The position numbers were made by a program. A stretch of DNA of 64,000 nucleotides from Escherichia coli O157:H7 (GTDB taxonomy: Bacteria; Pseudomonadota; Gammaproteobacteria; Enterobacterales; Enterobacteriaceae). The stretch lies in the NCBI RefSeq assembly GCF_013167455.1, contig NZ_CP038328.1; one strand, written 5' to 3'. Shown one piece after another: positions 6,001-9,000 of this stretch; position 1 is the first letter of the stretch, and each line of letters opens with the position of its first letter.

Positions 6001-9000
6001 CCTGCAACAGGGCTTCATCGCTGATGGTGCCTGGCGTAACGATACGCACAACTTTGCGCTCAACCGGACCTTTGCTGGTCGCCGGATCGCCAATTTGTTC
6101 GCAGATGGCAACGGACTCGCCCTGATTCACCAGTTTGGCGAGGTAGTTTTCCACCGCATGGTAGGGAATCCCCGCCATCGGGATCGGCTCTCCCGCCGAA
6201 GCACCGCGTTTGGTCAGTGAAATATCCAGCAGTTGCGACGCGCGTTTTGCGTCGTCATAAAACAGTTCATAAAAATCACCCATCCGGTAAAACAGCAGGA
6301 TCTCGGGATGCTGGGCTTTCAGCTTGAGATACTGCTGCATCATGGGCGTATGGGCGTCGAAATTTTCTATTGCACTCATGGGGTTATGTCCGGTTCCCTG
6401 ATATTAAATGGGGTGTGATGGTTTTTATTTTCGTTGTAATCACATAAGGCGCACATGATACCGGAGTTAATCATTTCAGGGGAAGAAGCGAACGGCGAGT
6501 TCTTGATGCTGGTTCCGGGAAAGATGCTGTTTTGCAGCTTTTGCGTGATGCTTATGAAGCAAGTACGCAAAATTGTATCGGTTGGCTAACCCTTCTTCTT
6601 TAGAGTCATAGTGCCCTTTAAGATTAAGTTGTAATATAAATGCATCTTAATGAGGTGGAGGCAGTATGTCCGGCAAGCGTATCTCTCGTGAAAAACTGAC
6701 GATTAAAAAAATGATCGATCTTTATCAAGCGAAATGCCCGCAGGCGTCAGCGGAGCCGGAGCATTACGAGGCGTTGTTTGTTTACGCGCAAAAGCGGCTG
6801 GATAAATGTGTGTTCGGCGAAGAGAAACCAGCCTGTAAGCAGTGTCCGGTGCACTGTTACCAGCCTGCAAAGCGTGAAGAGATGAAACAGATTATGCGTT
6901 GGGCCGGGCCGAGAATGCTGTGGCGTCATCCGATCTTAACCGTGCGTCATCTCATCGATGACAAGTGTCCGGTGCCAGAACTGCCGGAAAAATATCGTCC
7001 GAAAAAACCTCGTGAATAGTATGCCGGACAGGCAGATCTGTCCGGCAATTTGCAGTTAAATCAATGCCGATTTATCAATTCCCAGTCGCTTCATCCGTGA
7101 CAGCAGGGTCGTGCGTTTCAGCCCCAGACGTTGCGCAGCGCCTTTAGGCCCGGCAACCACGCCGTTAGTTTCTTTCAGCACGCGAACAATCAACTGATAT
7201 TCATCTTCGCCCTCCTGAGCGACAACCGTTGCGGCAGGCGGCGTTTCAGGCTCCGGTAAAGCAATATCTGGCAATGACAGCTGCAGCACGTTGCCGCGTG
7301 TTAGCAATACCGCGCGCTCAATGACGTTTTCCAGTTCGCGTACGTTACCCGGCCACTCCATATTGCTCAAGGTGCGCAACGTCTCGGCAGGAATGCTGTC
7401 GATATTGCGCCCCAGACGACGGGCAATTTTGAAGGTAAAGGCTTTCGCCAGCAGCGGAATATCTTCCGGACGCTCGCGTAGTGGCGGCAGGTGAATCGGG
7501 AATACGTTCAGGCGGTAATAGAGATCGCTACGGAACTCACGGTCGGCGACCATTTTTTTCAGATCGCGGTTAGTCGCGGCGATTAGACGCACGTCCGTCT
7601 GAATGATTTTGTTGCTGCCGAGGCGTTCAAACTCCTGTTCCTGCAATACACGCAGCAACTTCGGCTGTAACTCCAGTGGCATATCGCCCACTTCGTCGAG
7701 GAACAGGGAGCTTTTATCCGCCAGTTCAAAACGACCGATACGCTGGGCGCTGGCACCGGTAAAAGCCCCACGCTCATGACCAAACAGATCGCTCTCCAGC
7801 AATCCGGCAGGCATCGCCGCGCAGTTCATTTTGACCATGCGGCGATTATTACGCCCACTGAGATTATGGATAGCACGGGCAATCAGCTCTTTACCCGTGC
7901 CAGTTTCACCGAGGATCAGCACGGTACTGTCACTTTGCGCCACCATTTCAACTTGTTTAAGCACGCTGTACATGGCTTCGCTGCGGCCAATAATCTCGCC
8001 AAATTCACTATCAACATTGTTGAGCTGCTCGGTCAGGGCGAGGTTTTCATCAACCAGCCGTTCTTTCAGACGATGGATTTCCTGATAGGCGAGGGCGTTA
8101 TCGACAGCGATTGCCACACGTTCGGCAATCTGGCGCAGTAAATTCAGATTGGTAGTGGTAAACACTTTCTCTTCACATTGCGCCAGTTTCAGCACGCCCA
8201 GCATGGTGTCGCCAGACATCAGCGGTAACAGGCACAAGGTTTGAATCTGGTTGCCCCAGGTATCGAACAACATGCGTTCATAGGGGGCTAAATCATCCCG
8301 CTCGTGGAGATTAATCAGCAGCATCTCTTTACTTTTGAACACGCGTTCGGTGAGGGTTCCGGCTTCATCGACTTCGCTCTGTTCGTGGGCGGGATGCTGT
8401 TTATCAAGATAGTGAGTGGAGTAGATGTTGAGTTTGTTTTTACGGTGGCTGCGTAAGACGATACTGATATCGTCAATATCGAAATAGTAATGGATTTCTT
8501 TGGCGACTTCGCTGACCAGTTCGTCCATATCCAGGCGGGAAAGCACCGCGTTGGTGATGGCGACCAGGATGCGGAAGTTATCGCGTTCCCGGCATAACAA
8601 CTCATAGTCGACATTGTTAACGACGCGACTCTGGATTTGTTCGGTGACGACAGAAACGATCTGCGTAAATGTTTGCAGACGATTGAACTCTTTTTCGCTC
8701 CAGGGGCGATCGTCATAACGAATAAATTCACAGCCACCAAAAATATGCCCTTCCGCCGCCAGTGGCATCAGGCAATAGTGACCAAATTTTGGGTATAGCC
8801 CACCTGCGGCCAGCTGCGGCCAGGTTTCACAAAATTCTTCGTAACTGCAATGCAACGTATCAGGGCGCGACAAAATGCTGCGTACCGGACCGTGTGCCAG
8901 AACAGTTTCGTCTTCATATTTAATGGGGGTGTCTTTTTCACGCGATGCGTAATAAGACGCACGTTGAGTCTGCGCTTGCCACAACACAATAGCCGCGTTG

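Follow-up and report, generated by a model that had tools for sequence, protein, structure and literature searches.

The genes mutS and ygbA are read in opposite directions from a single short gap in Escherichia coli O157:H7. An earlier note on this DNA placed in that gap an NsrR-like inverted repeat, linked it to nitrosative-stress control of the small protein YgbA, and described the region as shared with the mutS promoter. This raises the question of whether an NsrR operator is indeed present here and, if so, where exactly it lies, why it departs from a palindrome, and whether it serves ygbA alone or both genes.

The mutS-ygbA locus and the YgbA protein

The locus was analysed within a window of 64 kb, by which we mean the whole stretch of DNA under study. 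Positions 6200-7100 (901 bases) showed 100% identity to an O157:H7 chromosome in a megablast search of complete E. coli genomes, and at least 80% of this stretch was present in 5403 of the 5426 genomes. RefSeq annotation of the region and our ORF listing gave identical genes, as follows.

3818..6379, minus strand: mutS (ORF listing and sequence reading)
6666..7019, plus strand: ygbA coding sequence, 117 aa, PF11756 (ORF listing, RefSeq annotation and Pfam match)
7056..9170, minus strand: fhlA (ORF listing and sequence reading)

The divergent gap between mutS (minus strand) and ygbA (plus strand) therefore runs from 6380 to 6665, and the length of 286 bp given for it in the earlier note is exact, since mutS ends at 6379 and ygbA starts at 6666. 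No Rfam family was found in 6200-6800 at E ≤ 1. A simple terminator scan of 6300-6750 reported two terminator-like hairpins, at 6345-6358 and 6526-6538. The former falls within the mutS coding sequence. The latter was rejected as a terminator, being chance-like, with only 5 pairs and a stem that is incompletely kept in E. albertii.

The product of ygbA is small and Cys-rich, as had been remarked, with 6 Cys in 117 aa. It matched the Pfam family PF11756 (YgbA_NO) over residues 4-106 with E = 1.6e-39 and 135 bits, against a cut-off of 25. Cys48, Cys57, Cys60 and Cys64 were invariant in 79 orthologs and form the pattern C-x8-C-x2-C-x3-C.

The NsrR operator upstream of ygbA

NsrR belongs to the Rrf2 family and is a repressor with an iron-sulfur cluster that responds to nitric oxide (NO), nitrosylation by NO relieving the repression. 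NsrR binding sites are 11-1-11 dyads (PMC5320621). To score such sites we used a palindromic weight matrix made from the 16 ChIP-seq-positive sites of strain CFT073 (PMC5320621 Table 4), with ygbA excluded. The features that emerged upstream of ygbA are listed below.

6626..6648: NsrR operator, an 11-1-11 imperfect inverted repeat AAGTTGTAATA-T-AAATGCATCTT (matrix score, published CFT073 position and 80 orthologous loci)
6626..6636: left half-site AAGTTGTAATA, degenerate, 7.8 bits, carrying a predicted -10 element
6638..6648: right half-site AAATGCATCTT, perfect consensus with 0 mismatches

A weight-matrix scan had been proposed as a check on the site, and in that scan the dyad at 6626-6648 scored 23.6 bits and ranked first among the ~64,000 positions of the window. 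The maxima of 200 shuffled sequences averaged 13.0 ± 2.2 bits and none of the 200 attained 23.6. A 23-bp 11-1-11 inverted repeat matching the NsrR matrix is thus found at 6626-6648, and the NsrR-like site upstream of ygbA is real and well beyond chance. The right half-site reached 15.8 of a maximum of 16.1 bits and was unequalled elsewhere in the 64 kb on both strands; its only exact copy in the window is the one at 6638-6648, where AAATGCATCTT also agrees with the strong half-site AANATGCATTT of NsrR operators. A search of the window for the full palindromic consensus, allowing up to 3 mismatches, gave no match because the left arm carries 4.

The inverted repeat had previously been written with AAGATTAAGTT as its left half, a single N as spacer and AAATGCATCTT as its right half. 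The right half stands exactly as written, at 6638-6648, but AAGATTAAGTT (6620-6630) is separated from it by 7 nt (GTAATAT) and not by one. The left half-site and spacer had consequently been placed 6 nt out of register, the correctly spaced left half being AAGTTGTAATA at 6626-6636. The distance of 15-45 bp upstream of ygbA that had been given for the motif was close to the 18-46 nt before the ATG that we counted for the motif as written.

Conservation of the site was analysed in 80 orthologous loci, obtained by a YgbA scan of a species-representative genome collection and drawn from Escherichia, Citrobacter, Salmonella, Klebsiella, Raoultella, Enterobacter, Kluyvera, Leclercia, Lelliottia and others, reaching as far as Rahnella and Hafnia. 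In 80/80 loci the best matrix match within 300 nt upstream of ygbA was at the homologous place. It ended 12-21 nt ahead of the ygbA ATG in 79 of them, and in Hafnia this distance was 41 nt. These sites scored a median of 19.9 bits; in shuffled upstream sequence the maxima averaged 2.9 bits, with a 99th percentile of 12.4, and the second-best non-overlapping match in the same 300-nt regions had a median of 3.6 bits. Loss of the half-site from orthologous ygbA promoters, named beforehand as the observation that would speak against the operator, was not seen, as the site exceeded the shuffled 99th percentile in 77/80 loci. When the sequences were anchored on the site, a column within the 23 nt held on average 1.39 bits of information, versus 0.21 in the 60 nt upstream, and left-half positions 1, 2, 6, 7 and 8 were invariant or nearly so in 81 sequences. 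Judged by this comparison across genera, the 23-nt site is a clear phylogenetic footprint.

Bases 6624-6625, which abut the site, carried ~0.6-1 bit, and the rest of 6620-6625 carried ~0 bits across genera; among E. coli alleles 6620-6625 reads AAGATT, AAAATT, CAAATT or GAAATT. Variation of the operator itself in six divergent E. coli alleles was confined to positions 4 (T/A), 9 (A/G), 17 (G/A) and 20 (T/C). The ygbA promoter stretch was present in 5416 of the 5426 complete E. coli genomes and nsrR, at ≥95% identity, in 5425 of them. The nsrR gene is located outside the 64-kb window.

Published work agrees with this placement. Mehta et al. 2015 (PMC5320621) cite Bodenmiller & Spiro 2006 for the regulation of ygbA by NsrR and Partridge et al. 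2009 for ChIP-chip binding at the ygbA promoter in K-12. Rodionov et al. 2005 relayed a communication from Spiro that NsrR represses hmp, ytfE and ygbA via this inverted repeat (PMC1274295), and ygbA mRNA was up 31.8-fold in a Salmonella nsrR mutant (PMC2884951). In CFT073, nitrate/NO conditions strongly induced a set of genes that includes ygbA; NsrR was undetected at ygbA by ChIP-seq in that strain, which its authors viewed as a probable false negative (PMC5320621). Table 4 of Mehta et al. 2015 (PMC5320621) gives AAGGTGCATTTATATTACAACTT for CFT073 ygbA; read on the opposite strand, this is the site at 6626-6648 with one base changed. The proposed link of ygbA to nitrosative-stress control through NsrR therefore matches both a published site and the published regulation of the gene (PMC5320621).

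The operators of K-12 and CFT073 have the same gene, position and 11-1-11 architecture as that of the window and differ from it in few bases. The CFT073 site, AAGTTGTAATATAAATGCACCTT in the orientation used here, is one base off the window allele (T/C at position 20) and the K-12 site, AAGATGTAATATAAATACATCTT, is two bases off (T/A at 4 and G/A at 17), which answers the comparison with the K-12 promoter that had been suggested: position and architecture are the same and two operator bases are different. The O157-type allele has the perfect consensus right arm (G at 17, T at 20), with 7/11 complementary pairs in its dyad versus 9/11 in K-12 (hand count), and scored 23.6 bits, against 22.6 for K-12 and 22.5 for CFT073. 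The ytfE operator, AAGATGCATTTAAAATGCATCTT, a near-perfect palindrome of the same regulon, has the right arm AAATGCATCTT and the 11-1-11 spacing in common with ygbA and scored 31.6 bits, with both arms at consensus.

We are thus highly confident that 6626-6648 is the operator through which NsrR acts on the ygbA promoter. The site is the already-known ygbA NsrR operator in its O157-type allele, and is nothing new in kind. Its location, statistical strength, register, conservation and embedded TAnnAT pattern (see below) come from our own analysis, in which the testable sequence features that define NsrR operators were found; binding and derepression, and with them the NsrR-dependent repression of ygbA, are the results of published work.

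A predicted -10 hexamer within the operator

Operator positions 7, 8, 11 and 12 were T in 81/81, A in 81/81, A in 79/81 and T in 81/81 sequences, respectively. At position 7 the NsrR matrix favours C and at position 11 T (0.84), and it is neutral at the spacer position 12. Among the orthologs the resulting TAnnAT took the forms TAATAT, TATTAT, TAGAAT and TAAAAT. TAnnAT is the pattern of the sigma-70 -10 hexamer, and its conservation makes a ygbA -10 hexamer embedded in the operator the best reading. The elements predicted on this basis, together with the Shine-Dalgarno sequence, are as follows.

6609..6614, plus strand: predicted weak ygbA -35 hexamer TAGTGC, with a 17-nt spacer to the -10
6632..6637, plus strand: predicted ygbA -10 hexamer TAATAT, inside the operator
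6644, plus strand: predicted ygbA transcription start, 7 nt past the last base of the predicted -10
6657..6661, plus strand: ygbA Shine-Dalgarno GGAGG, read from the sequence and invariant in Escherichia

In the 60 nt upstream, leaving aside the two bases next to the site, a single column was conserved, namely a G at position 3 of the -35 hexamer, which was kept in 72/80 loci at a fixed 17 nt from the -10. The -35-like hexamers at this place were CTGAAA, TAGTxx and TGGTxx, and the E. coli candidate TAGTGC matches TTGACA at 2/6 positions. A simple scan of 6300-6750 reported no sigma-70 promoter, and our literature search found no measured transcription start for ygbA. We infer a core promoter composed of a weak -35 and a good -10, with a start near 6644 and a leader of ~22 nt.

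The left arm would then be off the NsrR consensus because it also carries the -10 hexamer. Unlike the left arm of ytfE, that of ygbA deviates at positions 9 and 11 and at position 7 has T in place of C; these positions would build the -10. The NsrR dyad probably covers both the -10 and the predicted start, which is consistent with repression by occlusion. In the proposed mechanism, holo-NsrR would lie over the -10 hexamer and the predicted start (~6644) when NO is absent and would exclude RNA polymerase; NO would nitrosylate the iron-sulfur cluster and take NsrR off the DNA, and this release would permit transcription of ygbA.

Two other readings of the same bases have to be set against this one. 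NsrR might act in the register first proposed, on AAGATTAAGTT (6620-6630) and AAATGCATCTT (6638-6648), either as an 11-7-11 dyad or as a pair of half-sites bound independently. Binding of NsrR to single 11-bp motifs has been proposed (Partridge 2009, as cited in PMC5320621), and the two possible left halves are similarly weak, with 7.1 bits for AAGATTAAGTT versus 7.8 for the canonical half and 125 and 78 window positions, respectively, scoring as well. That the left arm of the operator is so weak by itself counts against the reading that we prefer. Since the half-site scores are near equal, the choice of register rests on spacing and conservation, and both favour 6626-6648: the NsrR dyads that have been described are all 11-1-11 (PMC5320621), the six bases unique to the other register (6620-6625) vary within E. 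coli and at four of them carry ~0 bits across 81 orthologs, and the 23-mer starting at 6620 reached only 7.9 bits with the NsrR matrix. We therefore consider a functional 11-7-11 arrangement, or a pair of independent half-sites, very unlikely. Even less credible, in our view, is that the conserved block is the ygbA core promoter only (its -10 and initially transcribed region) and that its likeness to an NsrR site is coincidental. The invariant TAnnAT does lie within the block, and the NsrR motif is AT-rich, as promoter DNA is, so that the two look alike; however, A1, A2, G6, T16, C18, A19, T22 and T23 have no promoter role and yet each is found in at least 77 of the 81 sequences, conserved like the -10, the right arm matches the consensus perfectly and has no equal in the 64 kb, and the NsrR dependence of ygbA has been shown by published genetics.

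The mutS side of the gap

According to Chen & Gottesman 2017, the 5' UTR of mutS is 74 nt long; Hfq binds it at an (AAN)3 motif (-50 to -42) and ArcZ pairs with it at -26 to -15 (PMC5580658). These elements, whose lengths and positions are taken from that work, map on the window as listed here.

6380..6453, minus strand: mutS 5' UTR, 74 nt (published length, PMC5580658, mapped on the window; identical to K-12)
6394..6405, minus strand: ArcZ pairing site AAUAUCAGGGAA, -26 to -15 (PMC5580658 Fig. 1C legend, mapped)
6421..6429, minus strand: Hfq-binding (AAN)3 motif ARN1, AAUAAAAAC, -50 to -42 (PMC5580658 coordinates, mapped; AATAAAAAC in the window sequence)
6454..6500, minus strand: probable mutS core promoter region, directly upstream of the published start and near-invariant in six Escherichia sequences

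This mapping puts the mutS transcription start at 6453 (minus strand). Both the (AAN)3 motif and the ArcZ-complementary stretch were present in the 74-nt leader at the exact published coordinates, and window positions 6380-6453 showed no difference from the K-12 leader (PMC5580658). From the mutS ATG to ~6500 the sequence is nearly invariant across Escherichia species. The expectation that the 286-bp gap has to contain the mutS promoter was borne out, in that the published start lies inside the gap and the core promoter should lie directly upstream of it, at 6454-6500. A simple scan of 6300-6750 gave no sigma-70 hexamers for mutS. The best -10-like hexamer, TATCAT (6460-6455, minus strand), was rejected as it ends 2 nt before the start at 6453, which is too close, and TTAACT (6470-6465, minus strand), which ends 12 nt before it, did not fit either. 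The fold of the mutS leader (104 nt) showed no extra stability relative to shuffles (z = -0.05). An alignment of mutS upstream sequences across genera was uninformative, the Enterobacter-like regions not being homologous to the Escherichia leader.

Whether the operator is shared with mutS depends on what sharing is taken to mean. Both promoters do lie in one intergenic gap, but the centre of the operator (6637) is ~184 bp upstream of the published mutS start at 6453, and the operator is kept next to ygbA in genera without an adjacent mutS. Divergent ygbA-mutS adjacency was found only in Escherichia, with a gap of 283-286 bp, and in Enterobacter, Lelliottia and Leclercia, with a gap of 517-533 bp that contains the end of another ORF. 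In ~55 other loci (Citrobacter, Klebsiella, Salmonella and others) no mutS start was found upstream of ygbA in up to 1.5 kb of sequence (less in three loci), and the operator was present in these loci too. Because it is retained where no mutS start was found nearby, we assign the operator to ygbA; on this comparative evidence it appears to belong to ygbA alone, with no evident connection to mutS, and the word 'shared' would describe geography and not regulation. The mutS promoter and its 74-nt Hfq/ArcZ-regulated leader (6380 to ~6500) are a separate, back-to-back unit.

A dual role, in which NsrR at 6626-6648 also modulates mutS and so links NO stress to mismatch repair, is hardly plausible on these data. 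Besides the position of the two promoters within a single 286-bp gap, what speaks for it is a weak extra half-site, AAGATGCTGTT, at 6521-6531, ~70 nt upstream of the mutS start; its 8.6 bits, however, are at chance level. The distance of the operator centre from the mutS start (PMC5580658), the retention of the operator in the ~55 loci described above and the ORF that intervenes between ygbA and mutS in Enterobacter-like genera all argue against such a role, and our literature search found no report of NsrR control of mutS. A looser form of coupling has little more to recommend it: in the Escherichia arrangement, derepression of the ygbA promoter by NO, or occupancy by NsrR, could conceivably influence the mutS promoter ~190 bp away, and the mediator could be supercoiling from divergent transcription or the half-site at 6521-6531. 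We found no support for such cross-talk in the present analysis and regard it as a long shot; if true, it would tie mismatch-repair capacity and mutation rate to nitrosative stress.

The site is a classic example of an operator in the E. coli NsrR regulon, and its significance lies mainly in the quality of the annotation. The operator extends over 6626-6648 and not over 6620-6648, and the comparative evidence suggests that its degenerate left arm also serves as the -10 hexamer of ygbA; this would explain why the site departs from a palindrome.

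The mutS–ygbA intergenic region

The RefSeq/PGAP annotation places a gene of its own between the divergent mutS and ygbA genes, and two weak sequence elements were found inside the same stretch.

6455-6589, plus strand: 44-aa 'hypothetical protein' WP_000611932.1, within the mutS–ygbA gap
6521-6531, plus strand: weak NsrR-like half-site AAGATGCTGTT (8.6 bits), ~70 nt upstream of the published mutS transcription start
6526-6538, plus strand: terminator-like hairpin of 5 bp, then TTTTG, overlapping the half-site

Comparison of six Escherichia sequences showed that the frame or the stop codon of WP_000611932.1 was not conserved, with variable columns spread over codon positions 1, 2 and 3 (15, 13 and 14, respectively), and no match to the protein was found in Pfam. 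WP_000611932.1 is probably a spurious gene call. Its ATG overlaps the mutS promoter region. The half-site and the hairpin each occur at chance level and are only partially conserved across Escherichia species.

Outside Escherichia, in Enterobacter, Lelliottia, Leclercia and relatives, the region preceding mutS could not be aligned with the Escherichia leader, and the E. coli-type Hfq (AAN)3 motif was not evident there. An ORF in the orientation of mutS ends ~110 nt before mutS in these genera (orthologous ygbA loci L028, L031, L037, L042 and others).

Variation in the ygbA operator and its product

At least six alleles of the ygbA operator were observed among E. coli, and the 73-nt ygbA promoter stretch ranged from 83% to 100% identity across 5416 genomes. 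The K-12 operator differs from the O157-type allele by two changes, T→A at position 4 (6629) and G→A at position 17 (6642). Both contribute to a higher dyad symmetry in K-12 (9/11 complementary pairs, compared to 7/11 in the O157-type allele), and with them the perfect right-arm consensus of the O157-type allele is lost.

Four cysteines of YgbA (C48, C57, C60 and C64, in the pattern C-x8-C-x2-C-x3-C) are invariant in 79 orthologs, and C24 was found in 75 of the 79. Residue 101 (codon 6966-6968) is Cys in the window and Arg in 78/79 orthologs, including those of other Escherichia.

Some E. coli strains carry an extra gene of ~430 bp between ygbA and fhlA (2349-2777 in the orthologous locus L002), encoding a TOBE-domain or molybdopterin-binding protein. 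Carriers include 4/1-1 and strains with 93.8-97.9% identity in a megablast of 6200-7100 against complete E. coli genomes. These strains encode a 114-aa YgbA, compared to 117 aa in the window, where the extra gene is absent and the ygbA–fhlA gap is 36 bp (7020-7055).

A second NsrR-like site between hycA and hycB

The second-ranked match to the NsrR matrix in the window, AAATGACATTTCATCGGCATGTT (13565-13587), lies in the hycA–hycB intergenic gap; its score of 17.1 bits is not independent because the CFT073 'hycB' site, identical in sequence, was in the matrix training set. This CFT073 site has a ChIP-seq peak for NsrR (PMC5320621), and NsrR binding has also been reported for hypA, near the hycA–hycB gap (PMC5320621).
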